A stretch of DNA of 64,000 nt from Chiloscyllium plagiosum (taxonomy: Eukaryota), in NCBI RefSeq assembly GCF_004010195.1, contig NC_057735.1, positions 13,694,057 to 13,758,056 of the forward strand, in the 5' to 3' direction. The notes under the pieces are model-generated. The model saw only the letters and a list, made by a program, of their open reading frames with translations. It ran no database searches and had not been told where the DNA came from. The translations under genes and the position numbers were made by a program. Below, piece by piece: positions 17,175-62,889 of the stretch; the first letter of the stretch is position 1; the number at the start of each line of letters is the position of its first letter.

Positions 17175-17845
17175 TCACAGATACCTGGTGGTAGGGTCCG
17201 TTTGGAGATGGTGGAAATGATGGCGGATGATACCCTGTATATGGAGGTTGGTGGGGTGGTAGGTGAGGACCAGTGGGGTTCTGTTCTGGTGGCGGTTGGA
17301 GGGACGGGACTCAAGGGCGGAGGTCTGGCGATGGAGGAGTCCAAGGACCTGCATTGTCTGGCGATGGAGGAGTCCCTCCTCCCTACCTTTTATCTTAGCC
17401 TGCGGGACACACTTTCCTCGACAGTTGGAGGAAGAACGCCTCATCTTCTGCCTAGGAACGCTCCAATCACAAGGGATGAACTCAGATTTCTCCAGTTTCC
17501 TCATTTCCCCTCCTCCCACCTTCTCAGTCAAATCCCTCGAACTCAGCACCACCTTCCTAACCTGCAATCTTCTTCCTGACCTCTCCGCCCCCACCCCCAC
17601 TCCGGCCTATCACCCTCACCTTGACCTCCTTCCACCTATCGCATTTCCAACGCCCCTCCCCCAAGTCCCTCCTCCCTACCTTTTATCTTAGCCTGCTGGA
17701 CACACTTTCCTCATTCCTGAAGAAGGGCTCATGCCCGAAACGTCGATTCTCCTGCTCCTTGGATGCTGCCTGACCTGCTGCGCTTTTCCAGCAACACATT
17801 TTCAGCTCTGATCTCCAGCATCTGCAGTCCTCACCTTCTCCTCTC
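17175..17845 (+). mobile_element. Penelope-like element remnant (inverted ORF fragment + ORF C-terminus + pLTR/tail with hammerhead)
   Basis: Minus strand 17175-17360 encodes RTPLVLTYHPTNLHIQGIIRHHFHHLQTDPTT (PLE linker). Plus strand encodes LEEERLIFCLGTLQSQGMNSDFSSF (PLE endonuclease C-terminus). A 49-bp pLTR segment is duplicated at 17371-17419 and 17664-17712. Tail ends ...gcagtcctcaccttctcc. Confidence 0.85.
17713..17748 (+). ncRNA. Minimal type-I hammerhead ribozyme motif, family A (intact core)
   Basis: ATTC-CTGAAGA-A-GGGC TCAT GCCC-GAAA-CG-TC^GATT: conserved core, 4-bp stem II, ACGT palindrome in place of stem III, stem I ATTC/GATT. Confidence 0.75.
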
Positions 17846-19251
17846 CATATGCATCTCTAGTGAAAAGCATTATCATTGTGTTGCTCATTAAGGGCTTAGA
17901 CAGAGAGGAATTGCTCCCATTGACATCAGAGTCGAGAACCTGAAGACACAAAGATTAAGTGACCGGCAAAATAACAAAAAGACGTTATGAGAAAAAGCTT
18001 TGTTGCATAGCAAGTGGCAACAAAGTGAAATATGCTGCCTGAGAGGTGCTAGAGGTGGACAAAACAGTGACTTTCAAAAGAGAACTCAACAGGCAGCTGG
18101 AGGAAAAATACTTAAAGTTTCAGAAAAAGGATCCAGAGTGAGACTAACTAAATTACTCTCACAGAAAGGTGGCATAGGCTTAAGGGGCAAATGGCCTCTT
18201 TACATGCTGTAACCATTCTGTGTTCCTTTTTACAAATGAAGTTACTATCATATTGGAGATGAAAAGTCACTGACAAGTCAGTTAGGAATTAACAAGTTAC
18301 TGCTGGATATATGGTGCATAACAGAATCATGTTTTATAGCGCTCTCAATTCCATTTCTAAAAGCCCCGAGGATATATGTGCTGTCCTAGTACTGATAGAA
18401 AACATGTGAATTCCAGGTCAATGCCAAATTAGCTGATCCAAACGGAGGTGGAAGAAACCGTCACAAAGGATGCTTCTGAACATTTACTTTCTCAAGAATT
18501 CTCATTTAGCTGAGGTTTCAGAGCATTGCTGCAACCTATGGAATCACGTGTCACACCTCCTGATTGAAGGGGAAGACGTGAGAACATTCAAACGCAAGAG
18601 TTTTCACTGACAACTCAGCGCAACTCCTCTGGTTAATTTGGTACCAACATTTGAGTCATAAGCCCTATATACACAGCTGATCAATAAGATCCTACATGTT
18701 CACAATACGTCGTGCCACTGTTCCACTTAACTCTCAATGTGCAACTTAATCAGGAGAGGGAGCATAAGAAAAATGCTATCCATTCACTATTGGAAAAGAT
18801 CTTGAAATTAGCACAACTGCAAAGTAATATCCCATAAGTATGCCTAGTACATTGTAGAGAAACACTCAGGAACAAACATCTTGCTGCAATTTAAAGGTCA
18901 GAAAAGGAGGCATCCGAAACTTGACAGCCAATCCACACATTGCATTGCATAAAAGTCACAGACCAGAGGGCACCAGATATGATACCCACACATTTTGGAA
19001 TGAACTGACCTAAACTGGGCATTACAAAAAGACTGGATGTCCAGCTGGAAAATATTTCAGGGTCATCAGCTTTCATTACTTTTTGGTGAACCTTGCTGCA
19101 AGTATGTGGGTTGGACAGTGAGGCATGGAGAATTGCGCCCAGCAAATATATCTTTCTTTGGAAATAACAGCTATAAAGTTCATACACCAAGACTGGCCAC
19201 TTGCGTGAGACAGAATCAACTACATGCCTGCATGGGTCTAAGGGGTGGTGT

Positions 19252-19563
19252 GGGCAGCACGGTGGGCACAGTGGTTAGCACTGCTGCCTCACAGCACCAG
19301 AGATTCCCGCCTCAGACGACTGTCCGTGTGGAGTTTGCACATTCTCCCCGTGTTTGCGTGGATTTCCTCCGGGTGTTCCGGTTTCCTCCCACAGTCCAAA
19401 AAAATGTGCAGGTTAGGTGAATTGGCCATGCTAAATTACCCGTAGTGTTAGGTGACGGGATACATGTAGGGGAATGGGTCTGGGTGGGTTGTGCTTCGGT
19501 AGGTCGGTGTGGACTTGTTGGGCCGAAGGGCCTGTTTCCACAATGTAAGTAATCTAATCTAAT
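19252..19563 (+). mobile_element. HE1-type tRNA-derived V-SINE
   Basis: A-box ggcacagtggttagcac, V-domain gtgtggagtttgcacattctccccgtg...tttcctcccacagtccaaa, CR1-like 3' end and (aatct)n tail. Confidence 0.88.
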
Positions 19564-20394
19564 GTAAATCAGGTAAAGGTTTCAATAGCAACCCATGTCA
19601 TACCATTTTATTGTGATAATATACCAATTTCATTCAATATTCTTTTCCTAGTCTCAACTGGACGGTCAATAATATAGGAGTTTACTTATCAAAAGGGGAA
19701 GAAATCAAACTTCTACTTTTCCCAAGTGCTTTGCAGAGATCAAACAAAGATTAACAGCAGGTTAGAGGAGATATTAACTTTCAAAAGTAGCTCATTGTTT
19801 GTAAAGCATCTTCGGATAGCCTAAGATCGTGGAAGAGGCTGTGAAATAGGAGGTGGGTAACAAAATACTTGGCCAGATTTGGTCAAGAAAGTTTAAGGAG
19901 GTTCTTAAATAAGAGGAAGGCAGAGAGATTTAGGGTGTGAATTTCAGAATGTGCAATAGAGATAGCGATGTGCAGAAGCATCAAGAGTTAGAAGATCAGA
20001 AAGTTGGATGCCTTTTGGGGTAGGGGAGAAACACTGTGGTTGTAAGGTTGGAGGACGTTACAGATGTGGGACAGTTAAGGATGCAAGTACATTTAAACAT
20101 AAGGTTGAGATTCTCAAAATGTAGATCAAGTCAACTAGAACTCAATACAAGTAACAAAGACAGGGACATTGATGAGCAAGATCCAATATTTAATTGTCTC
20201 AAAGAATTTCATATACAATTAATGCAATACCTTGATGTGCACAGACTAATTTATACAAACATGCCAGCCACTTTTCACAGCAAGGATACATGAACAGTTA
20301 ATTAATCAGTTTTTAGTGTCACTAGTTGAGGGGAGAATATTCACAGATCACCGGAAGGATCTTTTGAAAAGTCTTATGATCCTGCCCCATTAGC

Positions 20395-20482
20395 TATCTG
20401 ACGAAGGTGCAGCACTCCAAAAGCTGGTACTTCCAAATAAGCCTGTTGGTCTATCACATGGTGTTGAGAGATTTTTACCTTT
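20395..20482 (+). mobile_element. Degenerate family B hammerhead/PLE terminus
   Basis: CTGACGA-A-GGTGCAGCACTCC-AAAA-GCTG...cttccaaataagcctgttgg, homologous to 25039-25130; GAAA mutated to AAAA. Confidence 0.65.
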
Positions 20483-22929: not shown

Positions 22930-23610
22930 GTGGGGTGTTGAGGACGGTGTGTGTGGGGAGGAAAGGAGGAGGAGGAAGGGGGGGTGTGATGTTGTTATTG
23001 TTGTTGTGGAGACCTCGAGATCAACACATTGACTCGCGGCCTGCGCCACCGTCTCCCCTACAACAATATTTATATTTTATTTATTTTTGTGTGTGTGTGT
23101 GTGAAGGGGGGGGGGGTGGGGGTGGTGAGAGCAGTATTTTTGTTGTTGTGTGTATGTTTGAGAGGTTTGATCTGTTCTGTTTCCACGCCGGCGGGGATTG
23201 AGGGGAGGGAGGGAGGGAGAGAGGGAGGGGGGTGCGTGAAGAAAAGAAAAACACAACTCACCGCGAAAACGCCACCGGCGGCCGTCGTCGACCTCCTCCC
23301 CCGACATCTTCCTTCCCCCAGATGGAATAACAAGTGGGAAAAGCGAGAGGAAGCGCCGCCTGGGCAGAGCCGGCACCATCGGCGCGTTTTTTTTTAACCT
23401 CCAAAATAAGATTTGAAAATCCTCATAAAGAACAATAGAGCGCTTGGACAGGAAGTCACTGGGTGGCGCCATTGCTGCTGTGACGCCGCCGGGGGTCAGG
23501 GGTCACCGTGGGGCGGGACCACGGGCAAAGGGGCGGGGCAACCACGCCCCGCCCCTACCCCACCCCAGTCAGCATTCAGCCTGCTCCACGTGGCTCAGGC
23601 CAGCCTTCCC
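22930..23610 (-). promoter_or_regulatory. CpG island / promoter of a minus-strand gene (probably USP49 by synteny)
   Basis: High GC and CpG. ETS-like CAGGAAGT 23449-23456, YY1-like CGCCATT 23467-23473, GC boxes at 23511-23517, 23530-23538 and 23542-23555, E-box CACGTG 23587-23592. Confidence 0.7.
23262..23450 (-). other. USP49: Putative non-coding first exon of USP49 (5' end approximate)
   Basis: Strong donor TTTTCGCG|GTGAGT at 23262/23261 inside the CpG island. Identity is inferred only from the human USP49-MED20-BYSL order; no USP49 coding sequence was recognised in the window. Confidence 0.45.
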
Positions 23611-24799
23611 CATTAACTGTCTCTGACATGACACTCAGTGCCAAGGACCACCCTCACCATGTACCACCTTCACAGTGCATCACCTTCACGACACACCACC
23701 TTCACCATGTACCAACCGCATGGTGTACCATCTTCAGGACGCACCACCTTCACGGCACACCACCTTCACAATGTACCACTGCATGGTGTACCACCTTCAC
23801 AGTGTAACACCTTCACAATGCATCACCTTCACCATGTACCAACTGCACAGAGCACTACGTTCACCATGTACCAACCTTATAGTGCATCAACTTCACCATG
23901 CACCAACCTCACGGTGCATCACTTGCACCATGTACCAACCTAATGGTACATTACCTTCACCAATTACCAACCTCACAATGTATCACCTTGATGACACACC
24001 ACCCTCACCATGTACCAACCTCAGTGCAACACCTTTACATTGTACTAACCTCATGGTACATCACCTTCATGTACCAACCACAGTGCACCACTTTCACTGT
24101 GCACAGTCTTCATGGTGCATGGCCTTCACGGTGCATCACATTCACAGTGTATTACCTTCATTGTGCATCACCCTCATGGTACACCACCTTCACGGTGCAT
24201 CACTTTTCCATATACTGTAATCACCATGTACCACCTTCCCTGTATACCACAATTGCTGTGTACCATCTTCGCTAGGCACTGCAATTGCCATGTACTGCCT
24301 TCACTGTGTACCACAATCACCGCATATCATCATCACCGGGTACCACCTGTACCATGTACCACAATCACTGTGTACTCCCATCATTGTGGACTATATTCAC
24401 TATGTACCACAATCATCCTGCACCTCCTTCACCATGTACTGCTACTTTTGTGTACCATCTTAACCATGTACTATGATCACCACGTACCACAATTACTGTG
24501 TACCACATTCACCAACTTCACCATGTATCACTTTCAATGTGGATCACCTTCACCATGTACAACAATTACCATGTACAGCAATCATGGTGTATTACATTCA
24601 CCATGTACCACAATTGCCATCTACTACCTTCACAGTGTACCCCACAAACACCACGAACCATCTTCAATATATAACACTTAGGGCATGTACCACATTAATT
24701 GTGGATCATTTTCACCATATACCATCTTCACGATATATCATGTTCACAATGTACCACAATTGCCGTGTACCATGTCACCATGTACTGGCTTTACTATGT

Positions 24800-24925
24800 G
24801 AAAGTGAGGACTTAAGATGCTGGAGATTAGAGTCAAGATTAGAGTGGTGCTGGAAAAGCACAGCGGTTCAGTCAGCATCCGAAGAGCAGAAAAATCGATG
24901 TTTCGGGCAGGAGCCCTTCATCAGG
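24800..24925 (-). mobile_element. PLE-terminus insert, hammerhead family A, in the 16-bp minisatellite
   Basis: CTGATGA-A-GGGCTCCTGCCC-GAAA-CATC-GATT on minus strand. TSD GGCTTTACTA(T/C)GT at 24787-24799 and 24924-24936. Confidence 0.82.
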
Positions 24926-25038
24926 CTTTACTACGTACTGCCTTCAACTTATACTGCCTTTAAGGTGTGCCACATTCATCACACTGCATTCATCATGTAC
25001 CATATTCCCCATGTATTGCATTCAAAATGTACCACATT

Positions 25039-25161
25039 CACCTGATGAAGGTGCGGCACTTCGAAAGCTAGTGTGCTTCCAATTAAACCTGTTGGACTAT
25101 AACCTGGTGTTGTGTGATTTTTAACTTTGTACACCCCAGTCCAACACCAGCATCTCCAAAT
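25039..25161 (+). mobile_element. PLE-terminus insert, hammerhead family B
   Basis: CAC-CTGATGA-A-GGTGCGGCACTTC-GAAA-GC-TA^GTG (AGCT palindrome, stem I CAC/GTG, imperfect stem II). Flanked by cacattcacc at 25033-25042 and 25162-25171. Confidence 0.75.
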
Positions 25162-25849: not shown

Positions 25850-26620
25850 TGGGAGTGTCCTGTCAGTCAAAGCAGATACTGATGATGAGATCCTGCATCG
25901 CTTCTAGTGTGCAAGCACAGCCTTCGGCCACCTGATGGAAAGCGTATTCGGGGACAACAATAATCAGATCTGACACCAAGATCTTGGTTTACATAGCTGT
26001 ATGGTTCCCACTCTCCTATGTAGCTCTGAGATGCGGACTAGGAGAAAGTGAGGACTGCAGATGCAAAGAGTCAAAAAGAGTGATGCTGGAAAAGCACAGC
26101 AGGTCAGGCAGCATCTGAGGAGCAGGGGATTCGACATTTCCGGCATAAGTCCTTCATCAGGCCTGAAACGTTGATTCTCCTATTCTTCGGATGCTGCCTG
26201 ACTTGCTGTGCTTTTCCAGCGTCACACTTTTTGACTCTGGGACGTGGACTGTCTACAACAGACACCTCAAGGTGCTGGAGTAGTATCATCAATGCTGTCT
26301 ATGCAAGATCCTGCGAATCTGCTGGAAGGAAAGGCATATCAGCACCAGCGTCCTCAACCAGTCCATATCCTCAGCATTAAGGCATTGACCACCCTTGATC
26401 AGCTATGAAGGGCTGCTCCAAGACCAAAGTGGAAAAGGAGCATCTGGGAAGACGAAAAGCACCTCAAGACTAGCCCAGTGAAAGCACACCAATGCCCTAC
26501 CCATCCCTTCCCACAACCACCTTTTGCCCCAAGTGTAACAAAGCTTGCAGTAGCGACATCAGTCTGTATAGCCACCTGTGGATTCATCCCGAGAGTGGAA
26601 GTGAGTCTTCCTCACCAGTG
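25850..26620 (+). mobile_element. RTE-clade LINE remnant
   Basis: GSVLSVKADTDDEILHRF...TKILVYIAV...LLCSSE...TWTVYNRHLKVLE*YHQCCLCKILRI, typical RTE ORF C-terminal region; split by the 26041 insert. Confidence 0.75.
26041..26238. mobile_element. Fold-back pair of family A PLE termini inserted in an RTE fragment
   Basis: Minus copy 26041-26161 abuts plus copy 26161-26238. Diverged TSD ctctgagatgcggacta (26024-26040) / ctctgggacgtggactg (26235-26251). Confidence 0.8.
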
Positions 26621-27394
26621 AGGGACCACTAATGAATAAAAATGATCGCATTCACTTTTCCAATTTTCACACTATGTACAATGCATCACATTCATCATGT
26701 ACTACATTCATCATGTACCACATTCACCTTACCCCACATTTACTATGTACCATGTTCAATTCCACCCTCACATCTTCCAATTAGCACACATTTGACTTGG
26801 AATGTGGTCCACTCAATTGATTCTTTTTATATATTTATTCTTTTTAGAACATGGGTATCAGTGGCCATTCCTGATTGCTCTTGAGAAGGTAGTGGTAGGG
26901 AACCATTTGCTTTTTGTGTGATCTGTTACCACTCTGGGGAGAAGAAATGTCTTAACTCAAAAGGCTAACAATCTTTGGAATTCTATATCCCAGAGAGCCG
27001 TGGATGCTCGATCATTAGGAATGTTCAAGACAGAGAATGTTTGTTTATGAAGGGAATTTGAGGATACGGGGTTCATGCAGGAAGGGGAAGTTGATTAGAA
27101 ATCAGCCATGATCTTGTTGCATGTGGAACAGTTTAAAGCAGCCAAAGTCCTTCATTTGATCTCTTATCCTTGACCTGGAAAAAAAAATGAGTGATGCCAC
27201 CATATATATTTTTGCATTTTGCACCTTTTTAAAAAGATTCATTCATAGGATGTAAGCATTGCAAGTGAACATTGCACCCAGTGGAGGAATGGTGATATAT
27301 TTCCAAGTCAGAATGGTGTGTGTTTTGCAAGGGAACTTGTAGTTGGTGGTGTTCCCAAGATTTTATCAATAGTAGTGTTCACTGCAGTAGTTGT

Positions 27395-27700
27395 GGGTAT
27401 GTTCACCAAGCTGGGAAGTTAATTTGCAAATGCTTCATTCCCTTTCTAGGCGACATCCCCAATGCTGTGGAGCCTCCTGTGAAGTGCTGATAAATTGTGT
27501 CAGTTGGAACTTAATTGGTTTCATTCTTGGTGCTTCCAGTTGCTCCTTACAATGGTTGGTATATTGGGTCTAGATCAATATGCTTATTGATGGAGTCTGT
27601 GGATGAGTGCCATGCATCTAGAAATTCTCTGACTGTCCCCTGTTTGGCTTGTCCTATTATGTTGTCCCAGTCAAATTTGTAGAATTCATTTCTTTGGAAG
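27395..27700 (-). mobile_element. Second Penelope-like family (Poseidon-type) 3' remnant with decayed hammerhead family D
   Basis: Encodes KFDWDNIIGQAKQGTVREFLDAWHSSTDSINKHIDLDPIYQPL. At 27426-27465 (minus): GCA-TTGGGGA-T-GTCGCCTAGAAAGGGAAT-GAAG-CA-TT-TGC. Confidence 0.65.
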
Positions 27701-28350
27701 GATGCTGTGATGAAGGGGTTATCTTTTGAGGAAGGATTTGTGGTCAGATTGGGCCTGTATTTAATGGAGTTTAGAAAGATGAAAGGCTTCCCTAGGGGAG
27801 TCAACAGTGTGGATGCTGAAAGAATGTTTCAGAATAAGGGATCTCCCATTTTAAATGATGAGGAAAAGGTTTTCTATCAATCATTGACTGATGAAATTCT
27901 TTTTCCTAAACAGAAGCAGAGGAATTGATTTAGATCGATTTCTCATTGATAAGGGAGTCAGAGGTATTGAGGATCGATAGGAAAGTAGAATTGAGGTCAG
28001 AATCAGATCAGTCATGATCTTTTCTACTGTTAAAACAGACTCCAGGAGTTGAATAGCTTACTCCTACTTCTAATCTATATATTTCTAAGTTCAAATATCA
28101 CCATTACTTCACTATTCACACAAAACCTAGACTTCCTTTCCCAACAGCACTATGGGTGTAGCTACCCCACATGGACTGCAGCATTCCTAGAAGGCAGACC
28201 ATCACCACCACCGCAAGGATAATTAAGGATATGCAACAAATCCAGGCCTAGCTAAAAAACCCCACCTCCTACCTCCTGTGGAAGAATAAAAATCCCACTC
28301 CCAAAGCTTAAACACCCAAAATGCGATATCCAAACTCAAAACTCCAAAGG

Positions 28351-28475
28351 AGAAATTGAGGACTGCAGATGCTGGAGACCAGAATTGAAAGATGTGGTGC
28401 TGGAAAAACACAGCAGGCCAGGCAGCATCCGAGGAGCAGGAGAATCGACGTTTCGGGCATAAGCCCTTCTTCAGG
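28351..28475 (-). mobile_element. 125-bp PLE-terminus insert with intact hammerhead core and 13-bp TSD
   Basis: Flanked by AAAACTCCAAAGG at 28338-28350 and 28476-28488. Minus strand reads C-CTGAAGA-A-GGGCTTATGCCC-GAAA-CGTC-GATT followed by the family A tail. Confidence 0.88.
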
Positions 28476-28477
28476 AA
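28443..28477 (-). ncRNA. Minimal hammerhead ribozyme motif, family A (intact core)
   Basis: TTC-CTGAAGA-A-GGGC TTAT GCCC-GAAA-CG-TC^GATT; the 5' arm of stem I is short because of the insertion junction. Confidence 0.68.
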
Positions 28478-29270
28478 AACTCCAAAGGGTGACTAGATGT
28501 TCCGTATAACCAAGGCAGTACCAGATTTTTGTTGTGTCTTGGCGGTCCCAAGAATCTCTTCAAAAGTGGTTCAAGTGCTTGGGTTTCAGCTTTATCCTCG
28601 TTGGAAATTACGCCATGGGTAAGGAAGTGGTGACAAAATACTGATGTAGCTGGAACGTAAACGAGCTGGAATGATGATAGGGCTGGGGAGAGTATTAGGG
28701 CTGATTGGCAGCTGGTCTCAGGGACACACCTCCAGCCAGGCTTGTACTCTAAGGACTCATGCGAGATTCACTCATGAGTGTGGTATTGACAGCACCTCTT
28801 AGCTCACAAGTAGCAGAGGATCTAAGGCAAATCCTCCAATTTCAGGTAAAACCATTCATCCAGGTGGTCAGGAAGAAATAGCTCAGTACTACAATGGCTC
28901 TTATATCTCTTTAATGTGAAACTTAATACGAACAGGAGCTGGTCAACACATCCTGGGTTTTGACTTCTGAAAATCTGTCTGTCCTACATTTTGATGCAGT
29001 ACGGAAGGGTACAGCCTGGTAGAGGTGCCATCCTTTTCATATTAATGTTAAACTTGTTATTGTGCTCAGATGGTTAGAAAAGATGTCATAGCTTTATTGT
29101 GAAGAACAACAAGGGAGTTACACTCTGGCTAATATTTATCCCTTTATCAACATTACAAATTAAATTGATCTAGTCATTATTACATTGATGTTGAATGGAC
29201 TTTGCTGTGAACATATTGGCTGCTACATTTCCTACTTCCCAACTGCAATCAACTTCAGAAAGTATTGAAT

Positions 29271-29369
29271 TCTGATGAAATATCATTTCAACTTGACACA
29301 TTAACTCTGCTTTTCTCCCCAATGTTGCCTGACATGCTGTGTTTTTACAAACTTTTTATTTGGTTCTTT
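29271..29369 (+). mobile_element. Highly decayed family C insert
   Basis: tCTGATGAaatatcatttcaacttgacacattaactctg... with diverged flanking repeat aacttca(g/a)aaagta at 29251 and 29370. Confidence 0.5.
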
Positions 29370-30528: not shown

Positions 30529-31306
30529 GAGTCATAGAGACGTACAGTACGCAGACAGACCCTTTGGTCCAACCAGTCCATGCCAACCAAATATCCCAAC
30601 CCAATCTCGTCCCACCTGCCTATATCCCTCCAAACCCTTCCTATTCATATACCCATCCAAATGCCTTTTATATGTAATTGTACCAGCCTCCACCACTTCC
30701 TCTGGCAGCTCATTCCATACACGTACCATCTTCTGTGTGAAAAAGTTGCCCTTTAGGTCTCTTTTATATCCTTCCCCTCTCACCTTAAACTTATGCCCTC
30801 TAGATCTGGACTCCCCCACTCCAGGGAAACGATTTTGTCTATTTATCCTGTCCATGCCCCTCATAATTTTGTAAACCTCTATGAGGTCACCCCTCAGCCT
30901 CTGACACTCCAGGGAAAACAGCTCCAGCCTGTTCAACCTCTCCTTATAGTTTGAATCCTTCAATCCTGGCAATATCCTTGTAAATCTTTTCTGAAACCTT
31001 TCAAGTTTCACAACATCTTTCCGATAGGAAGGAGACCAGAATTGCATGCAATACTCCAACAATGGTCTAACCAATGTCCTGTACAGCTACAACATTACAT
31101 CCTAACTCCTGTACTCAGTACTGTGACCAATAAAGGAAAGCATACCAAACGCCTTCTTCACTATCCTATCTACCTGCGACTCCACTTTCAAGGAGCTGTG
31201 AACCTGCACTCCAAGGTGTCTTTGTTCAGCAACAGTCCCTAGGACTTATCATTAAATGTATAGGTTCTACTAAGATTTGCTTTCCCAAAATGCAGCACCT
31301 CGCATT
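30529..31306 (-). mobile_element. CR1-clade LINE 3' fragment
   Basis: ORF 30532-31074 VRPLLEYCMQFWSPSYRKDVVKLE...VWNELPEEVVEAG; ctctatgactc tail. Confidence 0.93.
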
Positions 31307-31329
31307 TGTTAAAGTGTTTCAGGCAGACT

Positions 31330-34220: not shown

Positions 34221-34409
34221 CTGAGCTGAAAAACGTGTTGCTGGAAAAGCGCAGGTCAGGCAGCATCCAAGGAGCAGAATCGAGCATAAGCCCTTCTTCA
34301 TTCCTGAAATGTCGATTCTCCTGCTCCTTGGATGCTGCCTGACCTGCTGCGCTTTTCCAGCAACACATTTTTCAGCTCTGATCTCCAGCATCTGCAGTCC
34401 TCACTTTCC
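34221..34409. mobile_element. Fold-back pair of family A PLE termini with perfect 16-bp TSD
   Basis: CTTATGGAGACAGATA at 34205-34220 and 34410-34425. Minus copy ~34223-34300 and plus copy ~34301-34409; hammerhead cores partly deleted. Confidence 0.88.
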
Positions 34410-39350: not shown

Positions 39351-39444
39351 ACAAAACAGAAACCGCTGGAAAATCTCAGCAGATCTAGCAGCACATGTGG
39401 AGTGAAAGCAGGGTTAATGTTTGGGTCCACTGATGCTTCTTCAT
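39351..39444 (-). mobile_element. Degenerate family C hammerhead insert downstream of the MED20 stop
   Basis: Minus strand ATGAAGA-A-GCATCAGTGGACCC-AAA-CATT-AAC plus family C tail. TSD AAGGCTGTA at 39342-39350 and 39445-39453. Confidence 0.7.
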
Positions 39445-39952
39445 AAGGCTGTACGTTCCCTTCAGATCTTTGCTGAAAGCTTCCACTCACCACTTGTTTT
39501 AAGGTTGCCAAGCTTGAAATTGCAAAAGCACAGAGTCATCTCTTCAGGTTGTGCCATATTTAATTGAATAATTCTACTCCAAAGACATTCCAAACAAGGG
39601 AATCAGTGTGAGCAGAGTTGGGATAGTGGGGTTAGAGGAGAGATTAAAAATAACGCACAGGAAGATTTCACTGATCATATTAGAAAAGTGACACCCAGAT
39701 GTTGAATGGCCACATCTGTCGATAGAGGGGGAAAGCAACAAACCATTTTTCTTGACTACACCTTCTGTTCCTTTGAAGCAGAAAGTACTGTGTGAAATTT
39801 TTGCAGCACCTTGAATGATTCCTAGAACATTCCATATTGAACATGTGCTATTTACTTTTGCAAGAATGTGGTTTAGACTGCAAAAAGTAACAAAACATAT
39901 AAAGTATGAAGTTCATATGCAACTCAATTCAGATTTCCCACACTGAAGTAGT

Positions 39953-44621: not shown

Positions 44622-44623
<2 letters not shown>

Positions 44624-46301: not shown

Positions 46302-46934
46302 CTGCGAATGAGAATCAGCAGATCAACAAAACTCAGCACAGATTCACCTGCAGCATTTTAAGTTTGGGAGTAGAGAGAGCAAAGGAATGAGTTTTGCATT
46401 TCCATTCTATTCTTTCACCTCACATCCTGAAAGATCTCCCTATCTGTGGGATACAGATGCATAAGACGTTTTCGAGTCCAGTGCAAAAGGTTGAGCAGGC
46501 TATTCAAGCATCATAGACATCTTTAATCAAGGTTCAGATATATGACAATCTCTGGAACAGGTGGGATTTGAACCTGGGCCTTCTGTCTCAGAAATAGGAA
46601 TGCTACTGTTCCCCACAAGAGCACCCTTAAACCCAAAGCAAGAACACACCATTGTCTGATAAATTAAAATCAAAGCTCACATTTACCTCAACTAAGGAAG
46701 CTAAACGTCCCAATTACCTGATGTACAGAGCTGGAAAATCCTCCTGAAAAATAACCATTTCAATATTGCAATTAATCACTACTTGACTAGAGTGATCCAT
46801 AGGGCCATCAGGCTGCTTTCAATAAAAGTTTGGGAGGTGGTGGGGGTGTTAGTGTGGGCAGGTTTACTAAAGACAGCATTGTCCTTCATATGAGCACACA
46901 AATCCCATTTCACAATTTGTCACAGTGGAATCTG

Positions 46935-47048
46935 TGCCCGAAACGTCGAATCTCCTGTTCCCTGGATGCTGCCTGACCTGCTGTGCTGTTCCAGCAATAA
47001 AGTTTCAACTTTGATCTCCAGCATCTGCAGACCTCACTTTCTCCTCCT
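46935..47048 (+). mobile_element. Family A PLE terminus truncated within hammerhead stem II
   Basis: tgcccGAAACGTCGAATctcctg...gcagacctcactttctcc; possible 6-bp TSD aatctg (46929-46934, 47049-47054). Confidence 0.8.
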
Positions 47049-47454: not shown

Positions 47455-47790
47455 TAAGAAACAGGAGCTGGTGTCAGCCATTCAGCCCCTCGAGTCTGCC
47501 CCAACATTCAATCAGATCACAGCTGATCTTCTATCTCAGTTTCCCCACACTATTCCCATACCTGTCCATTCCTTAACTATCCAAAGGTTCCATTTCATCT
47601 CACCTCAATTATGTTACTGACCCTCCATAGCTTTCTGAAATGGAGAATTCCAATGATCCACAACTCTTTGAATGGAGGAATATTTCCTCATCGCAGTCCT
47701 AAATGGTTGACACCAGTCTGAAATTAGGATCCCTAGTTCTAAATTGCCCAAGCCAGGGTAAATAGGTCCCAGCATCTCTCCCTTAAGAGT
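47455..47790 (-). mobile_element. CR1/L2-type 3' fragment
   Basis: cataagaaacaggagc...gccattcagcccctcgagtctgcc...; minus strand encodes QRVVDHWNS. Confidence 0.65.
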
Positions 47791-47810
47791 TGTGTGTTTA
47801 ATGAAACCAC

Positions 47811-48530: not shown

Positions 48531-48732
48531 CTCTAATTCTTCTAAACTCTGGGTAATTTAAGTCTTGTTTACTCTATCCCTCCCCAGACAAACACCTTAT
48601 TCCTGGATTTTTCTTTTGTGTGTGCTCTAAAACAGGTGTATTGTTTCTTGGATAAGGCAAGCAAATCTATATACAACATCCCAGATGTATTCTCACTGAG
48701 CTCCTGTACCACTCCACTATACAAGGGTGGCA

Positions 48733-53277: not shown

Positions 53278-55390
53278 ACAAATACATTAAGGACAAAAGG
53301 GTAACAAGGGAGAGAATAAGGCCCCTCAAAGATCAGCAAGACGGCCTTTGTGTGGAGCCGCAGGAGATGGGGGAGATACTAAACGAGTATTTTGCAGCAG
53401 TGTTTACTGTGGAAAAGGATATGGAAGACACAGAATGTAGGGAAATAGATAGTGACATCTTGAAAAATATCTAAATTACACAGGAGGAAGTACTGGATGT
53501 CTTGAAACACATAAAAGTCGATAAATCCCCAGGACAGACAGGAAGAGTATACTTAAGAGGGAAATCAAGAGAGCAAAAAGAGGACATGAGATAGTTTTGG
53601 CAAATAGAATTAAGGAGAATCCAAAGGGATTTTACAAATACATTAAGGACAAAAGGGTAACAAGGGAGACAATAGTGCCCCTCAAAAATCAGCAAGGTGG
53701 CCCTTGTGTGGAGCCGCAGGAGATGGGGCAAATACTAAATGAGCATTTTGCATCAGTACTTTCTATTTAAAAGGATATGGAAGATCTAGAATATAGGGGA
53801 ATAGATGATGACTTCTTGAAAAATGTCCATATTACAGAGGAGGAAGTGCTGGATGTCTTGAAATGCATAAAAGTGGATAAATCCCCAGGACCTGATCAGG
53901 TGTATCCTAGAACACTGTGGGAAGCTAGGGAAGTGACTGCTGGGCCTCTTACTGAGATATTTGTATCATCGATAGTCACAGGTGAGGTGCCGGAAGACTG
54001 GAGGCTGGCTAATGTGGTGCAAATGTTTAAGGAGGATGGTAAGGACAAGCCAGGGAATTATAGACCAGTGAGCTTGACGTCAGTGGTGAGCAAGTTGTTG
54101 GAGGGACAGGATGTACATGTATTTTGAAAGGCAAGGACTGATTAGGGGTGGTCAACATGGCTTTATGCGTGGGAAATCATGTCTCACAAACTTGACTGAG
54201 GTTTTTGAAGAAGTAACAAAGAGGATTGATGAGGGCAGAGTGGTAGATGTGATCTATACGGACTTCAGTAAGGCGTCCGACAAAGTTCCCCATGGAACAC
54301 TAGTTAGCAAGGCTAGATCTCATGGAATACAGGGAGAACTTGCTATTTGGATACAGAACTGGCTCAAAGGTAGAAGACAGAGGGTGGTGGTGGAGGGTTG
54401 TTTTTCAGACTGGAGGCCTGTGACCAGTGGAGTGGAACAAGGATCGGTGCGGGGTCCACTACTTTTCATCATTTATATAAATGATTTGGATGTCAGCATA
54501 AGAGGTATAGTTAGTAAGTTTGTAGATGACACCAAAATTGGAGGTGTCGTGGACAGCGAAGAAGGTTGCCTCAGATTGCAATGGGTTCTTGATCAGATGG
54601 GCCAATGGGCTGAGAATTGGTAGATGGAGTTTAATTTAGATAAATGTGAGGTGCTGTATTTTGGGAAAGCAAATCTTAGCAGGACTTATACACTTATCAT
54701 AAGGTCCTCGGGAGTGTTGCTGAACAAAGAGACCTTGGAATGCAGGTTCATAGCTCCTTGAAAGTGGAGTTGCAGGTAGAATGGATAGTGAAGAAGCCAT
54801 TTGGTATGCTTTCCTTTATTGGTCAGAGTATTGAGTACAGGAGTTGGGAGGTCATGTTGCAGCTGTACAAGACATTGGTTAGGCCATTGTTGGAACATTG
54901 CATGCAATTCTGTTCTCCCTCCTATTAGAAAGATATTGTGAAACTTGAAAGGGTTCAGAAAAGATTTACAAGGATGTTGCCAGGGTTGGAAAATTTGAGC
55001 TATAGGGAGAGGTTGAATAGGCTAGGGCTGTTTTCCCTGGAGTGTCGGAGGCTGAGGGCTGACCTTATAGAGGTTTATAAAATCATGAAGGGCATGAATA
55101 GGGTAAATAGACAAGGTCTTTTCCCTGGGGAGGTGGTTTCCAGAACTAGAGGGCATAGGTTTAAGGTGAGAGGGGAAAAATATAAAAGAGACGTAAGGGG
55201 CAACCTTTTCGCGCAGAGGGTGGTACGTGTATGGAATGAGCTGCCAGAGGAAGTGGTGGAGGCTGGTACAATTGCAACATTTAATAGGTATTTGGATGGG
55301 TATATGAACAGTAAGAGTTGGGAGGGATATGGGCCGGGTGCTGGCAGATGGGACCAGATTGGGTTGGGATATCTGGTCAGCATGGATGAG
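53278..55390 (+). mobile_element. CR1-clade LINE (HER1-like), 5'-truncated, degraded ORF2
   Basis: KSPGPDQVYPRTL, PGNYRPVSLTS, QHGFMRGKSCLTNL, VTSGVEQGSVRGP, SKFVDDTK, LERVQKRFTRMLPGL. Stops and frameshifts; 5' segment 53278-53535 duplicates ~53635-53890. Confidence 0.95.
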
Positions 55391-56069
55391 TCGGAACTCC
55401 CCCCGACCCCAGCAATAGGAAAACTGATATTTTGAGTCCAGAACCACCCAATTGAGTAACTGAGTCTGTTGATGTCACACATGGTACAGGAGAAAAGGGA
55501 GTGTTGGGCAGCAAACAGTGGGAGGGTGGGAGTGAAAGATCATATAATTAAACCTCCAGGATGCCCTCTGGCCCAAACTAGTAACATTACTTGGGTTCCA
55601 TAGCAAGGATATTGGCAATAGCTTTAGAATATTGAATACTATGCTGCCTCGGATCATTGCTGACACGAGTCAGTTTATTCACTTAAACCTGTTGCGTGCA
55701 ATAGTTAGGATTGTCAATGAAAGTAAGCAGTTCTAGTGATATGATATGACATTTTATGTTTTTAAAATATTTACCCTTTCAAGGATAGTTGTGGTATGCA
55801 CCACAATGATAAAGGATTGAAAACAGAATTTTTTGGACAGCATAACGCTGAAATTCTAAAGAAATAAGAGTCAAATCATTGGTATTCATCAACGTTTAGC
55901 AGTTCTTGCTATCAACAGCACTTTGATAAACTTCAGGTTAGATAATATTCTAACTACAAGTGAGAGTAAAGATATGTTAAGATAGTGCCTTGCTGCACTC
56001 TCACAGAATTATTTGATGGTGATTTCCAAAATCAGGATTGAGAATCTAATAGCTGGGTAATTTCCAGGT

Positions 56070-56140
56070 CGAGAGTGCGGTGCTAGAAAAGCATCTGAGG
56101 AGGAGAATTGACATTTCGGGCATAAGCCCTTCATCAGGAA
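56070..56140 (-). mobile_element. 71-bp family A hammerhead insert with 12-bp TSD (MED20 intron 1, sense)
   Basis: TAATTTCCAGGT at 56058-56069 and 56141-56152. Minus strand reads ATTC-CTGATGA-A-GGGCTTATGCCC-GAAA-TGTC-AATT. Confidence 0.85.
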
Positions 56141-56519
56141 TAATTTCCAGGTGGCCAACCCCATGCTATAACATGTCTTTATTCAAGGGATTGGCTGTGT
56201 GTGGCAGGGAGATAAAACCAACTTTTGCTGACATCTACATGGACAGATATTTGACATTATATAAAACAGCAAGGGCTAGAGAATCCCTCATGCAATGTCA
56301 CTTCAAAATGCAAAAACTCGAACTGGTCCACTGCTCAGCATCTCATTATGGGAACCAAGCTTTATCAGGACGTGGTAGCAGTCTGTGGAGTGCAAGTGGC
56401 AAAGGCAGATGGCAGCCATGAAGGACCTTGCCACTACTTTGAAATAAGCAGACATCACCAGAGGGTCAGGTGCCTAACCATGAGCTTATGTTGCCAAATG
56501 GCCAAAGTGAGGGTGAAGA

Positions 56520-56950
56520 TGCATAATCATCATCTGACTCAATTCCCTTCCTCGACATCTGTTTCCATTGCTGAGGATAGGGCTGGCCACCGATATACAC
56601 TGCAAACCCCTGACTCCCACAGTCCCCTCAACTATAAATCCTCATCCTATGCTTCCTATAAAGACTCTATTCTATTCTGCCAGTTTCCCAGTCTACATTA
56701 CAGTGAGAAAGGTTGTCCAGGATTGCAAGGAAACTTGATCATAATGGACTGAGTGGCAGATAATTTGGATAAATGCAAGGTATTGTATTTTGGAAAAACA
56801 AACAAGGGTTGTGTTGGCAGGATTAGACCAACTCTCCACGCTTCAGGCTCACTGCCTTTATTCCTGAAGGGCTTTTGCCCGAAATGTCGATTTCGAAGCT
56901 CCTTGAATGCTGCCTGAACTGCTGTGCTCTTCCAGCACCACTAATCCACA
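56520..56950 (+). mobile_element. Penelope-like RT fragment plus pLTR (with an intervening CR1-like piece)
   Basis: ~56540-56700 matches the PLE RT motif FLDISVSI...DSHSPLNYKSS...KDSILFCQF. 56860-56950 is a family A terminus with a 3-nt core deletion (ATTCCTGA-AGGGCTTTTGCCC-GAAATGTC). Confidence 0.7.
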
Positions 56951-57886
56951 CAACTTTGCATGTGTCTACATGCTAAAAAAAAGGATTAGAGAAACTCAGC
57001 AGGTCTGGCTGCATCTCTGGAGAGACAACGAGTTAATGTTTTGAGATCAATATGAACAGTTCATGAGTCAAAACCCTAATGCTTGTTTCTCTCATGACAA
57101 AAGGCCCTTTGACTTGCTGAGTTTCCTGAATTTTATTTCAGATCGCTGGCATGCATAGTACTTTGCTTTTATTTTCCTGCACCTCTAATGACCCCTTCAA
57201 CCCAAATGCCTCTGAAACGTAGAAAATTGACAGCTGCGACAGAGGTCATTCGGTCCCATTGTGCCCATGCCATTTTCCAGATCTTGGTCTGTAACCCTGG
57301 AGGTTGTGGAACCACAAGTACAATTTATATATATATTCATGAGCGTGATGAAGGTTTCTACCACTGTCACACTTTCAGGTAGTATATTCCAGACCCCCAG
57401 CATCCTCTGGAGACAAAAACCAACCCAACTCCTTGTCCAATTTACAACTCAGAGCAGAAAGTGCAAAGCAAGTCTCGAATCTTAGTCCCTCTGTGAGGCC
57501 TAAATATGCATGTTGATTCCAGTTACACTCACGTCTGATAGTAGAGGGGAACTGGTCAGAATCTGTAATTGTGTCAGAAAGAAATCATTTAAGATAAAAA
57601 CGGACGAATCCGACACAAGCATTTCACCTTAGAATGATTTGCAATGAGTTAAGCAACTTAGATATTCCACATTCAAGAAATGCTGGAGGCTCCTGACAAA
57701 GAGGGATGCTTTGACGTCTTTTTTGCTCTATATAATACAAATTTAACACGTGAAATTGTCTTGGAGATCCCAGGTTACTGAATGCTCTTGAATTCAGTTC
57801 TGGTTGCCTTGCTAAAGCTCAACTCCCTCCCCCTGCACTGACAGTTCTTTTGAATAAAGAGAGTTCATGAAAAAGGTGCCTCTCAC

Positions 57887-57900: not shown

Positions 57901-58104
57901 CCTCTCGGCTCCGGCTCTTCCTCCAACTCTGCAATCCTTCAACACCCTCCTGAGTCACCTCCTGCTGCTAAGATACGATCACAATCTCCCTCTTTCCCTT
58001 TTAGCGCCAATACTGCACCATCCTTCACCTCCTCCCTTGCGCTGTCCGCACCGCGACGATCGCAAACCCTCCAAGAGGCGTCTCTCACCTCACTCAAAGT
58101 AACC

Positions 58105-58439
58105 CTCCCGCAACCGCGCCCCTACTGGACAAATGGCTCTCCCGCAACCGCGCCCCTACTGGACAAGTGACTTTCCCACAACCGCGCCCCGACTGGACAA
58201 GTGGCTCTCCCGCAACCGCGCCCCGACTGGACAAGTGGCTCTCCCGCAACCGCGCCCCGACTGGACAAATGGCTCTCCCGCAACCGCGCCCCTACTGGAC
58301 AAGTGACTTTCCCGCAACCGCGCCCCGACTGGACAAGTGGCTCTCCCGCAACCGCGCCCCTACTGGACAAGTGACTTTCCCACAACCGCGCCCCGACTGG
58401 ACAAGTGGCTCTCCCGCAACCGCGCCCCTACTGGACAAG
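58105..58439. repeat. CpG-rich 34-bp minisatellite, 10 copies
   Basis: Unit CTCTCCCGCAACCGCGCCCC(G/T)ACTGGACAA(G/A)TG(G/A); 'ctggacaa' recurs every 34 bp from 58125 to 58431. Confidence 0.97.
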
Positions 58440-58847
58440 CAGACCTCCTAGCTGCAATTGCTCTCCACAATCAGGGTTGAACAGGCATCCCAGCATTAAA
58501 GATCCAGGGCAGACAAACATCCCCTGCCCTTGATGACAAACTTGATCACGACCTCATACCAACCTTTGAGAGTAAGGGAACTATTTAAAGCAAAATTAAA
58601 CACGGTTTAAAAAAAATGTTCCATCTACATTGTTTTCTACAATACTGCTGGGTTAATGGTAGTTTTCTTTTCCCTAGGATGGGGAATTTCAAGTCTAGGG
58701 TACACATTTTTTAAAGTGAAAGAGATTTAACAAAGACGTGAGGTACAAACCTTTTACACAGATAATGGTTAGCGGTGGAATGAACTTCCTGACAAAGTGA
58801 TGGATGTGTATAAAATTACAATGTTTAAAAGACATTTGGATCAGTAG

Positions 58848-60224
58848 AGTCATAGAATCATTGAGATGTACAGCACGGACACAGACTCTTCCGTCCAACC
58901 CGTCCACGCCGATCAGATATCCCAACCCAATCTAGTCCCACCTGCCAGCACCTGGCCTATATTCCTCCAAACCCTTCCTATTCATATACCCATCCAAATT
59001 GCTCTTAAATGTTGCAATTGTATGAGCCTCCACCACTTCCTCTGGCAGCTCATTCCATACACGTACCACCCTCTGAGTGAAAAGGTTACCCCTTCGGTCT
59101 CTTTTATATCTTTCCCCTCTCACCCTAAACCTATGCCCTTTAGTTCTGGAATCCCCCACCCCAGGGAAAAATAGTTTGTCTATTTATCCTGTCCATGCCC
59201 CTCATGATTTTTATGCACCTCTCAGCCTCCGATGCTCTGGGAAAACAGTTCTAGCCTATTCAACCTCTCCCTATAGCTCAAATCCTCCAATCCTGGCAAC
59301 ATCCTTGTAAATCTTTTCAGAACCCTTTCAAGTTTCACAATATCTTTCCGATAGGAAGGAGACCAGAATTGCATGCAATATTCCAAAAGTGGCCTAACTG
59401 ATGTTCCGTACAGCCACAACATGACCTCCCAACTCCCGTACACAATACTTTGACCAATAAAGGAAAGCATACCAAATGCTTTCCTCACTATCCTAACTAC
59501 CTGCAACTCCAATCTCAAGGAGCTATGAACCTGCACTCTAAGGTCTCTTTGTTCAGCAACACTCCCTAGGACCTTACCATTAAGTGTATCAGTCCTGCTA
59601 AGATTTACTTTCCCAAAATGCAGCTCCTCACATTTATATAAATTAAACTCCATCTGCCAATTCTCAGCCCATTGGCCCATCTGATCAAGAACCCATTGCA
59701 ATCTGAGGCAACCTTCTTCGCTGTCCACTACACCTCCCATTTTGGTGTCATCAGCAAACTTACTAACTATACCTCTAATGCTCACAATCAAATTATTTAT
59801 ATAAAGGATGAAAAGTAGTGGACTCAGCACCGATCCTTGTGGCACTCCACTGGTCACAGGCCTCCAGTCTGAAAAACAATCCTCCACCACCACCCTCTGT
59901 CTTCTACTTTTGAGCCAGTTCTGTATCCAAATGGTGAGTTCTCATTGTATTCTATGAGATCTAACCTTACTAACCCGTGTTCCATGGGGAACTTTGTAGA
60001 ATGCCTTACTAAAGTCCATATAAATCACACCTACCACTCTGCCGTCATCAATTCTCTTTGTTACTTTTTCGAAAAATTCAATCAAGTTTGTGAGACATGA
60101 TTTCTCATGCATAAAGCCATGTTGACTACCTCTAATCAGTCCTTGCCTTTCCAAATATATGTACATCCTGTCCCTCAGGATTCCCTCCAACAACTTGCCC
60201 ACGACGTCAGGCTCACTGGTCTAT
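58848..60224 (-). mobile_element. CR1-clade LINE, 5'-truncated, nested in an older CR1 3' end
   Basis: RT motifs VTSGVPQGSVLSP, SKFADDTK; tail ...atgattctatgact. Host CR1 pieces at ~58660-58847 and 60225-60358 on plus strand; agtag on both sides. Confidence 0.93.
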
Positions 60225-61719
60225 AGTAGATGAATGGGAAAGGTTTGGAGGGATATTAGCCAGGAACAGGCAGGTGGAACTAGTTTAGTTTGGGGTTACG
60301 TTCGGTATGGACTTGTTGGACAAAAGAGTCGGATTCTGTGCTGTATGACTGTATGACTAATCTTCAAACATCTCCCCTGATTTTAATTGAAGTCGCATGT
60401 AGTGCCAAAATACATATTGTGTAGAACTAAAGGGATACCGAAAAAACACATAACAGATTGGATATCAAAATAGAGTTTAACTTTGCAGATCTGGCAGCAC
60501 CTTCGGCCCAACAAGTCCACACCGCCCAACTCTACGTATATCGCAAATTCGTGGTATATTGACATCTGAACAACGTTTAATTACACAATATATGTCCATG
60601 TTTACAAGTGTTGACAGACATGCAAAATGATGCTGCGGCAGAAGCATATCGCCACAATGAGTTCCCAACTACTTTAACATCTTGACGTTGTCCTTCCACT
60701 TACAGGACAAGATGATACAATGCTGATTGAAGCAGACAAGAGCCAGCTGCTAAATTGATCCTGAGGAACCAGAGCATTTTTGACCTTTGCCAAACATGTG
60801 AGTAATCCTGTACCATAGAATCCTGCAGCACAATACGAACCTACCGGGTGTTTTATGTCGATAGTTTCTCATTGAGAGGGCAATTCGACTAGTCCCAACC
60901 TTCTGCTCATTCCCCATAGCTCTATTTTCTCTGTTCAAATAATTATGGATTTATGCTATAATTACATTTCAAAGTTTTGAAAGTATTTCCACTACCATAT
61001 CAGGCAGCATGTTTCAAAATTATTGCACCTTGGGGCTTAAACTTAAATTCTCATGTCCCAGCTGGATATGAAAGAAGTGTGAGTTTTGGAACGATGGCAG
61101 AAAAGTGAACCTTTGAGGGCATCTGTCTTGTTTTGAGTGAGTTGAGACTTGTGCAGAATTCTTTTCATTCACTCATGGAATGAACATCTCTGGTTGGATC
61201 AGCACTTACTGCCCATCCCTGGGTGCCCTTAAAAAGGTGGTGGTGATGAGCCACCTTCTTGAACCTCTGAAATCCATTTGTCTGTTAGAAGAATCAAGTC
61301 TTGAAGTGATGGGCATGGACTGTAGTAGCCAATTAAGGAAACTGGTAAAAGGACCAAAAGTATATTGAGGGAGCAATTTGTATTTATATAGGATCTTTCA
61401 TGTCATAAAACATGCCAATATGTTTCAAAGGGGTATTATATACTGAGCTACTTAAAACAATATTAGGGCCCAAATGTTTTGTTGAAGAAAAAATAGGTTT
61501 TAAGATGAGTATAAACAAAAGGGAGATAGAGAAGCAGGAAAATATAGGGCAAGAATTTCAGAGCATGGAGGCCTAGGGAAGGTATAGCCACTAATGATGG
61601 AGTGATTAAAATCAATGATGACAGGAAGTTAGAATTAGAGGAACATAGGTTATGGGGTTGGAGACAAAATGTTATGATCAGTTAGTAAAGCTGATGGAAC
61701 CTTTTTAATAAGCATAAAG

Positions 61720-62397
61720 TCTGTAAAGACCGTTCCCTCGACCACTACCTTGTCAGGCCCCCCAACAACCCATCCTCCCCTCCTGGCATCTTCCCCTGCC
61801 ACCACAGGAATTGAAAAACCTGTGCCCACACCTCCATCCAAGACTCCATCAAAGTTTCACCTGCATTTCCACACATGTCATTTACTGTATCCATTGCTCC
61901 CGATGTGGTCTCTTCTACACTGGGGAGACAGGTCGCCTACTCGCAGAGTGCTTCAGAGAACATCTCCGAGACACCCACACCAACCAACCCCACCACCCAT
62001 GGCCGAACACTTTAACTCCCCTTTCCACTCCGCCAAGTACATGCAGGTCCTAGGCTTTCTCCCTTACCACCCAATGCCTGGAGGAAGAACGCCTCATCTC
62101 CGACCTTGGGACCCTCCAACCACATGGCATCAGTGTGGATTTCACCAGTTTCCTCATTTCCCATTCCCCCACCTTACCCCAGTTCCAACTTTCCAGCTCA
62201 GCACCGCCTTCATGACCTGTCCATCTTCCTTCCCACCTATCCGCTTCATCATTCCCTCTTTTACCTTTACCCCCATCTCCATCTACTATTGCTCAACGTT
62301 GATTTTCCTGCTTCTCGGATGCTGCCTGTGCTGCTGTGTTTTTTCAGTACCAGACTCTCGACTAATCTCCAGCATCTGCAGTCTTCACTTTCGCCTA
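61720..62397 (+). mobile_element. Penelope-like element 3' part with GIY-YIG endonuclease remnant
   Basis: ORF 61811-62053 contains FTCISTHVIYCIHCSRCGLFYTGETGRLLAECFREHL (GIY-YIG with CxxC), followed by pLTR and family A tail with the hammerhead mostly deleted. Frameshifted. Confidence 0.88.
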
Positions 62398-62781
62398 TAA
62401 AATCAAGGAGATCTTACACAGGTAAAAAGGCTCTTCAGGCCATCGGGTCCTTTACTGGTCATCAAGCATCTATCTGTTCCAGTCCCATTTTCCAGCACTT
62501 GCCTCATAACCTGGTATATTACAGTATTCAAGTGCTGATTTAAATACTTTTAATTACCTTGAGGGTTCCCATCTATTCCATACTTTTAGGCAATAATTCC
62601 CAGACACCCAGCTACCCGCTTGGAACAAATTCCCCTATAAAATTGTACACCCTCCCACCACCCCACCTCCTACTACTACTGACTCTACTATAAAGGGGCA
62701 AAAAGTTCTTATCAGTGGCCCTCATAACTTTGTAGATCTCAATCAGCCTTCTGTAGTCTAAGGGAAACAATCCCAGTTCAA

Positions 62782-62889
62782 GTGAATCCGTTCTGAGGAA
62801 GGGTCACTCGACCAGAAATGTTAAGTCTGATTTCTCTCCACAGCTGCTGTCAGACTTGCTGAGCTTTTTTCATCAATTTCTGTTTTTGC
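62782..62889 (+). mobile_element. PLE-terminus insert, hammerhead family C
   Basis: GTT-CTGAGGA-A-GGGTC ACTC GACCA-GAAA-TG-TT^AAG at 62790-62825. TSD cccagt(t/c)caa at 62772-62781 and 62890-62899. Confidence 0.72.

Follow-up and report, generated by a model that had tools for sequence, protein, structure and literature searches.

The 64,000-nucleotide stretch of the Chiloscyllium plagiosum genome analysed here (contig NC_057735.1, positions 13,694,057–13,758,056 of the forward strand; hereafter the window) carries dispersed minimal hammerhead ribozyme motifs. These loci are very probably scattered, mostly decayed end-pieces of Penelope-like retrotransposons (PLEs), namely pieces of the pseudo-long terminal repeat (pLTR) with a minimal type I hammerhead; cutting is predicted only as a dimer or with a protein of the element, and the solo copies are likely inactive. 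Window positions are counted from its first letter (Table 1), and positions written as +n or −n are counted from C3, the first C of the core CUGANGA.

The initial annotation listed 14 loci in 4 sequence families (A, B, C, and D), and this division was borne out. All 14 are repeat copies with a hammerhead or its remnant, but only 6 keep an exact core with stem II; the dispersed motifs are real but mostly decayed. That list lacked two further pieces, a family C copy at 57041− and a family A copy at 62280+ whose hammerhead is deleted. A descriptor demanding the exact core and at least 3 of the 4 stem II pairs matched 6 times in the window, with C3 at 17717+, 25042+, 62793+, 56137−, 28474−, and 24924−, whereas 100 dinucleotide shuffles of the window averaged 0.16 matches and never exceeded 2. 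Palindrome, core, and stem II are all kept at only 2 loci, 17717+ and 28474−; at 24924 and 56137 the palindrome is replaced by CA and UG, respectively. In the copy at 26160, one half of an inverted pair, stem II is broken with G.G at its base, and the family D copy (C3 equivalent 27462−) has a broken core. A strict descriptor, which adds 3 unbroken stem I pairs to the exact core and the stem II rule, had no match in the window or in 3 shuffles but matched 36 times in 868 kb of genomic sequence. No Rfam hammerhead covariance model matched in the window at E ≤ 5; the Rfam matches obtained there were hairpin-type chance matches on inverted pairs.

The copies at 17717+ and 28474− had been called catalytically intact. 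This holds for the core, but stem I has only 2 contiguous pairs, followed by U.U; the predicted probability of stem I in the monomer is at most 0.02, and no intact same-strand partner lies nearby. The 17717 locus has the core, stem II, and the ACGU palindrome, with C-G, U-A, U.U, and A-U in stem I; the 28474 locus is alike except that just 2 pairs form in stem I. The predicted cut after C17744 agrees with our numbering, in which C17 is 17744.

Table 1. PLE-derived features in the window (TSD, target-site duplication; EN, endonuclease; RT, reverse transcriptase; a dot marks pieces on both strands).
Feature	Position	Strand	Remark
Inverted PLE-body piece (RT-EN linker region)	17175..17345	−	joined upstream of the 17420 piece; then duplicated pLTR fragment 17371-17419
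Family A PLE end: EN C-terminal remnant, pLTR, hammerhead, tail	17420..17843	+	long 3' end at ~+126; homologous to the end of the RT-EN element at L026
TATA-like TTTTAT	17681..17686	+	36 nt upstream of C3; putative promoter element
Initiator-like TCATTCC	17711..17717	+	A at 17713 (−4) is the first stem I base and the modal 5' boundary of short copies
Minimal hammerhead, intact core CUGAAGA-A-stem II-GAAA-CG-UC	17713..17748	+	predicted cut 17744/17745
Predicted downstream hairpin, arms 17761-17768 / 17816-17823	17761..17823	+	3' arm inside the PLE tail
Family B solo, tail absent, G12 changed to A	20398..20482	+	
Family A solo starting at ~C3, 10-bp TSD	24797..24925	−	palindrome lost (C3 24924; CA)
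Family B solo with tail, 10-bp TSD, within 16-nt tandem array	25038..25161	+	core intact, stem II mismatch (C3 25042)
Family A head-to-head inverted pair	26040..26241	.	main piece 26040-26161 on −, tail-less partner on +
Family D (Poseidon-type): EN C-terminal remnant 27547-27828, pLTR, dead hammerhead 27426-27465	27389..27828	−	
Family A solo, 13-bp TSD, promoter part absent	28351..28477	−	core, stem II, palindrome intact
Family C old copy, broken core	29268..29360	+	
Family A inverted pair, 16-bp TSD	34221..34409	.	whole core in neither half; 34280 motif partial
Family C solo, 9-bp TSD, broken core	39351..39446	−	
Family A copy starting in loop II	46933..47046	+	46935 motif partial
Family A solo starting at −3/−4, 12-bp TSD	56070..56141	−	palindrome lost (C3 56137)
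Family A copy, 3-nt core deletion	56840..56947	+	
Family C partial copy	56984..57041	−	absent from earlier list
Family A copy with GIY-YIG remnant (61727-62053)	61690..62396	+	hammerhead deleted, tail kept
Family C solo starting at ~−4	62789..62886	+	core intact; G.A at stem II base (C3 62793)

The motifs had been attributed to PLE-associated minimal type I hammerheads, and linkage to RT and GIY-YIG sequence, a tandem arrangement, TSDs, inverted partners, and a tail bear this out. The window frame at 61727–62053 gives a weak GIY-YIG match (E 0.09); a genome search with this fragment yielded 95,690 first-look candidates, and the family A end was present at all 10 loci returned. Locus L026 has RT motifs (RVT_1, E 3e-4) and a GIY-YIG region that ends directly before a family A hammerhead, and locus L025 matches RVT_1 at E 1e-7. 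An EN motif lies upstream of long pieces in A (4/63), B (4/18), and D (7/33); RT and EN are linked to family A, and B and D are linked by the EN motif only. Locus L140 is a true tandem in which an EN end, pLTR, hammerhead, and tail are followed by the element body, with the likely first ATG ~163 nt after C3. TSDs of 8–20 bp were found for 25 of 120 short solo pieces, the search missing the other 95, and TSD-like repeats of 7–16 bp flank 7 of the 16 window loci. An inverted partner accompanies 202 of the 531 pieces sampled from the genome (58 of 96 in family B). Head-to-head inverted pairs occur, for example, at L039, L044, L050, L058, L059, and L085, and several of their joins use stem I complementarity.

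The linker upstream of the GIY-YIG domain points to the element types. In family A it reads CHRRNCKTC (L077), a Cys linker of the Neptune/Nematis type, and family B has a decayed Cys version (L203). Family D has no Cys linker before EN; for family C no Cys linker was seen and no open reading frame (ORF) was linked to its pieces, which share the post-hammerhead leader with A. On this evidence, A and B are putative Neptune-type elements, C a putative relative of A, and D probably a Penelope/Poseidon-type element. In family D an AUG overlaps A9-U-G10.1, and in 8 of 12 copies no stop interrupts its frame for 33 codons; families A–C have no AUG at that place because their extra nucleotide is A. In loop II of family A (window 17731–17733), subfamilies carry ATG, GTG, or TTG at the same place; the frame appears to run into the main ORF at L148 and stops after 26 codons in the subfamily of the window.

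Pairing was assessed on 11 subfamily representatives in a core-anchored layout, as a MAFFT alignment was out of register for family B. Paired cells numbered 83 of 88, which none of 5000 column shuffles reached, in agreement with the earlier observation that the stems differ by family yet pair. Within a family, stem pairing was complete (28/28), compared with a mean of 3/7 across families, and 3 pair types occur at stem I positions 1 and 2. Absence of covariation among genomic copies had been named as a refuting outcome; that test is mis-posed, since covariation is expected among subfamilies and not among dead copies. Among the 176 core-exact motifs of the genome sample described below, (i) stem I pair 1, for which they were not selected, is C-G, A-U, or U-A according to family; (ii) pair 10.1–11.1 is G-C in 125 and G-U in 35; (iii) the extra nucleotide between 9 and 10.1, whose position is built into the descriptor, is A in 154 and U in 16; and (iv) the palindromic 15.1–16.1 that replaces helix III is CG in 86, GC in 33, and one of the CpG decay products CA (24) and TG (18).

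In a dimer, stem I pairs the 5' arm of one strand with the 3' arm of the other, as follows from the Fig. 1A legend of Cervera and de la Pena 2014. Where the palindrome and the first pair are intact, homodimers are predicted to form 2–4 stem I pairs on both sides, with target folds of −10 to −18 kcal/mol. Cross-family dimers would lose the core-adjacent pair or most of stem I (modelled target folds of −9 to +3 kcal/mol), and the sole junction predicted to pair fully is one-sided, with C as enzyme on A as substrate. This largely excludes the suggestion that families sharing the ACGU palindrome could form dimers with each other: stem I too is exchanged between the strands, and it mismatches in all combinations but one.

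Abundance was estimated by sampling the 46 largest contigs of the 3.56-Gb genome at fixed round positions, with 170 stretches each 10 kb long (1,640,204 non-N bases); the genome-wide figures hold if the sample is representative. The sample contains 531 pLTR pieces (A 287, C 101, B 96, D 47), or ~1.15 million genome-wide, and the 176 core-exact motifs (2–6 in shuffles) scale to ~380,000. Among 305 pieces that span the hammerhead, the core is intact in 149, and core, stem II, and palindrome together in 91. The copies decay neutrally: divergence in the core and in other invariant columns is 6.4 and 6.3% in family B, 9.8 and 8.9% in C, and 5.7 and 5.9% in D. CpG columns diverge by 18–44%, 3–5 times faster, and methylation decay likely kills many copies because G12 sits in a CpG.

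The 5' ends of the copies, which were found by sequence downstream of the cut site, pile up just before the core. In the bin −7..0, 122 of 291 family A–C pieces begin, compared with 23 of 479 piece-bins at −60..−21; the pile-up recurs in the held-out half of the data (49/119), among pieces at least 90% identical to a reference (A 35/87, B 9/24), and is consistent with the TSD-bounded copies. Within −12..+8 lie 216 of 475 5' ends of A, B, and C. Family D shows no pile-up (0/40). None of 138 upstream pieces ends at −12..0, so the boundary is one-sided. The pLTR duplicate at 17371–17419 stops just short of the hammerhead, a one-off without a recurring boundary; the symmetric cut at −4/−5 that it suggested was rejected, as none of the 138 upstream pieces ends there. 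Splicing was rejected as the cause: the pieces have no upstream exon in common, and A and B lack an AG. A small peak of family A 5' ends at +28 was considered as a cleavage product; 3 of its 6 cases turned out to be inversions joined by complementary stem I sequence, and the bin shows no enrichment.

Sequences upstream of the boundary resemble a promoter. Among 28 long family A copies, 23 have the initiator-like A at −4 and 22 have TTTATC at −35..−37. TATAAA occurs at −40 or −38 in 11 of 12 long family B copies; family D has TATAAA near −53 and no pile-up within 28 nt of its core. In one single-cell RNA library, loose read ends at exactly −4 numbered 50 and 166 on 2 references, in a fragmented library that cannot show starts; it contained no pile of molecule ends. 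The reads lie on both strands and therefore probably come from passively transcribed copies.

At the other end, 3' ends are bimodal in all 4 families, at ~+70–95 and +105–128, the 2 sites lying ~35–40 nt apart. Families A, B, and D also have a second hairpin, whose 5' arm covers +43..+56 and whose 3' arm falls between the two 3' ends. A helix of that length at that place arose in 0–5 of 400 shuffles for 5 of 6 representatives (one of family C) and in 26 of 400 for the sixth, and the arms covary within family D (CAG/CTG in 6/15, CGG/CCG in 5/15). It matches the stem-loop at which RT starts in the anole element (Frangieh 2024, PMC11167929). No excess of 5' or 3' ends was found at the cut site: its bin holds 28 of 418 5' ends, compared with 50 of 829 in the flanking bins (p = 0.71), and only 2 upstream pieces end near it. 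The retrotransposed RNAs are thus uncut templates.

These observations suggest the following cycle. The pLTR promoter would start the RNA at the first stem I base, and RT would start inside the RNA at one of 2 sites flanking the 3' arm of the conserved hairpin (~+85 or +125). Starting in the RNA's first copy of such a site, RT would reach the 5' end after ~90 or 130 nt, and the short cDNA could be inserted as a promoterless solo. The fold would be kept by selection in active master elements and not in the copies, the copied RNAs being uncut. On balance, we favour the reading in which the boundary is the RNA start and the solos are short cDNAs running from an internal RT start to the RNA 5' end. 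With a little less confidence, at slightly better than even odds, we propose the wider account that Neptune-type PLEs start their RNA at the first hammerhead base, with the initiator doubling as stem I, and that strong-stop-like cDNAs of 90 or 130 nt, each integrated by itself, gave rise to the promoterless hammerheads of this genome in their hundreds of thousands; Poseidon-type elements, with an ORF that begins inside the hammerhead, would avoid this fate. If true, the solo copies are a fossil map of the start site and the RT priming sites.

Several results weigh against this account or against parts of the PLE assignment. The 5' ends spread over ~8 nt; at −4, family B does not match the initiator; the TATA box is clearest in family D, where the pile-up is nonetheless absent, and the short-cDNA step is therefore not a general one; and no cap-derived G is apparent in solo copies (2 of 4 readable at −5, too few cases). 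None of 6 long family C pieces has an EN motif upstream. The stem II counts are partly circular, because the descriptor used to choose the representatives itself requires stem II. The dimer hammerhead fold is predicted to lie 5–19 kcal/mol above the best dimer fold, with which the low or protein-assisted published activity accords. The raw core divergence of family A is lower than elsewhere (3.4 vs 6.0%, p = 1e-5); this fades once subfamilies and base types are treated separately (p = 0.09 and 0.68 on 109 pieces), and weak selection may act on some family A copies.

The pile-up could instead arise during insertion, through an RT stop or a GIY-YIG nick at the 5' boundary of the hammerhead fold, or through joins at stem I microhomology. 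We regard this as the less likely origin, though a serious competitor: several inverted joins use the GAAT/GATT match of stem I, the anole enzyme nicks 5'-ATT-3' in its own pLTR (Frangieh 2024), and both the missing cap-derived G and the TATA box of family D without a pile-up fit it. By contrast, the boundary is one-sided with no 3' ends there, B and C lack ATT at the site, D has the same fold without a pile-up, and solos without an inverted partner show the pile-up too; moreover, RT would be expected to stall on entering the fold and not on leaving it.

That the solos are a self-propagating retrozyme or short interspersed element family, cut by the hammerhead and circularised, would suit their very high copy number and the published derivation of animal retrozymes from PLE pLTRs. 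It is improbable given that neither 5' nor 3' ends are in excess at the cut site, that the promoter part is absent from short copies, whose sequences follow the subfamilies of the long elements, and that no head-to-tail monomer arrays of hammerhead copies were seen in the window; tandem monomers with a hammerhead and ends set by cleavage, which define retrozymes, were not found. Marginally less credible still is retention by the host of some copies (such as 17717+ or 28474−) as working ribozymes, possibly as cross-family dimers in pre-mRNA. Their cores are intact, reads of the family are present in the RNA run, and the raw core divergence of A is low, but the 17717 copy is young (95–98% identical to many other genomic copies), decay is neutral after controls, the reads fall on both strands without a pile of molecule ends, and mismatches in stem I stand in the way of heterodimers. 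Chance matches inside an ordinary repeat would explain why Rfam and the strict descriptor find nothing in the window; the probability of this is negligible in view of the 176 matches in 1.64 Mb against 2–6 in shuffles and of a first stem I pair that is C-G, A-U, or U-A by family though not selected.

Around these copies, the window holds MED20 coding exons at 39998–40174, 42262–42570, and 46160–46294 (− strand; Pfam Med20), and the 46933 copy and those further up may lie in the first MED20 intron. A frame at 63479–63985 (+) beside a CpG-rich stretch stands head-to-head with MED20 and has no Pfam match; we take it to resemble the bystin N-terminus. Long interspersed element fragments, presumably CR1-like, lie at 30532–31307, 47743–48561, 53268–55435, and 58849–60220, with RVT_1 at 54090–54623 (E 8e-15). 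A degenerate 16-nt tandem array occupies 23600–24760, with pieces to 26730, and has one family A and one family B copy inserted; a 34-nt array at 58037–58506 has ~14 units that are up to 96% identical. A GC-rich island at 23300–23560 may be the promoter of another gene.

The ribozyme class and its diagnostic features are already known, as the initial annotation said of the class. Cervera and de la Pena 2014 (PMC4209133) give the extra nucleotide between 9 and 10.1 and the 15.2–16.2 palindrome as general features of PLE hammerheads, and neither is therefore supported as new. Their minimal hammerheads and ours share type I topology, no real helix III, the palindrome at 15.2–16.2, the unpaired nucleotide at 9/10.1, G10.1-C11.1, several families per genome, and mostly solo truncated copies with some close opposite-strand pairs. 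Here, stem II has 4–5 bp in A–C and stem I ~3 bp. Cartilaginous fish are missing from the text and supplementary file 2 examined, and no 5' pile-up is reported in that part; their counts of ~4,000 motifs in coelacanth and 9,000 in Xenopus, obtained with different descriptors, compare with ~380,000 here.

Bimodal 3' ends and inverted partners are described by Craig 2021 (PMC8557442) and Frangieh 2024 (PMC11167929). The Neptune and Nematis elements of the former share with ours the CX2-5CxxC linker (present in A, decayed in B), 5' truncation, inverted partners, and the tail; our assignment by linker does not separate Neptune from Nematis, and for C no ORF link was obtained. Poseidon PAc of Anolis carolinensis (Frangieh 2024) likewise has 2 RT starts downstream of the hammerhead, in a stem-loop, which define a tail of 30–40 bp; with family D it shares an ORF start inside the hammerhead, and its template is uncut RNA. 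In family A, by contrast, the likely ORF start is ~163 nt downstream, and no solo copies starting at the hammerhead are described in the sections on PAc examined. The non-LTR retrozymes of Li 2026 (bioRxiv 10.64898/2026.07.22.740005) also carry type I hammerheads from PLE pLTRs, with one chondrichthyan sampled, but form tandem arrays, whereas the window copies are solos and head-to-head pairs. Penelope of Drosophila virilis (Schostak 2008, PMC2377424) has its promoter in the pLTR of the upstream tandem partner, as proposed here; in the fly element the promoter is internal and has no TATA box, and an intron separates the start from the hammerhead, whereas TATA-like motifs lie upstream here and no intron is evident. 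A search of the open literature, with subscription journals, Repbase, and Dfam outside it, found no report on shark PLE hammerheads and no start-site or strong-stop account. For the poorly understood PLE cycle, the copy statistics offer a possible reason for the flood of solo minimal hammerheads in some genomes and draw attention to a second conserved hairpin where RT starts; they also argue that cleavage does not set the ends of the retrotransposed RNA, in agreement with the in vitro result for the anole element.

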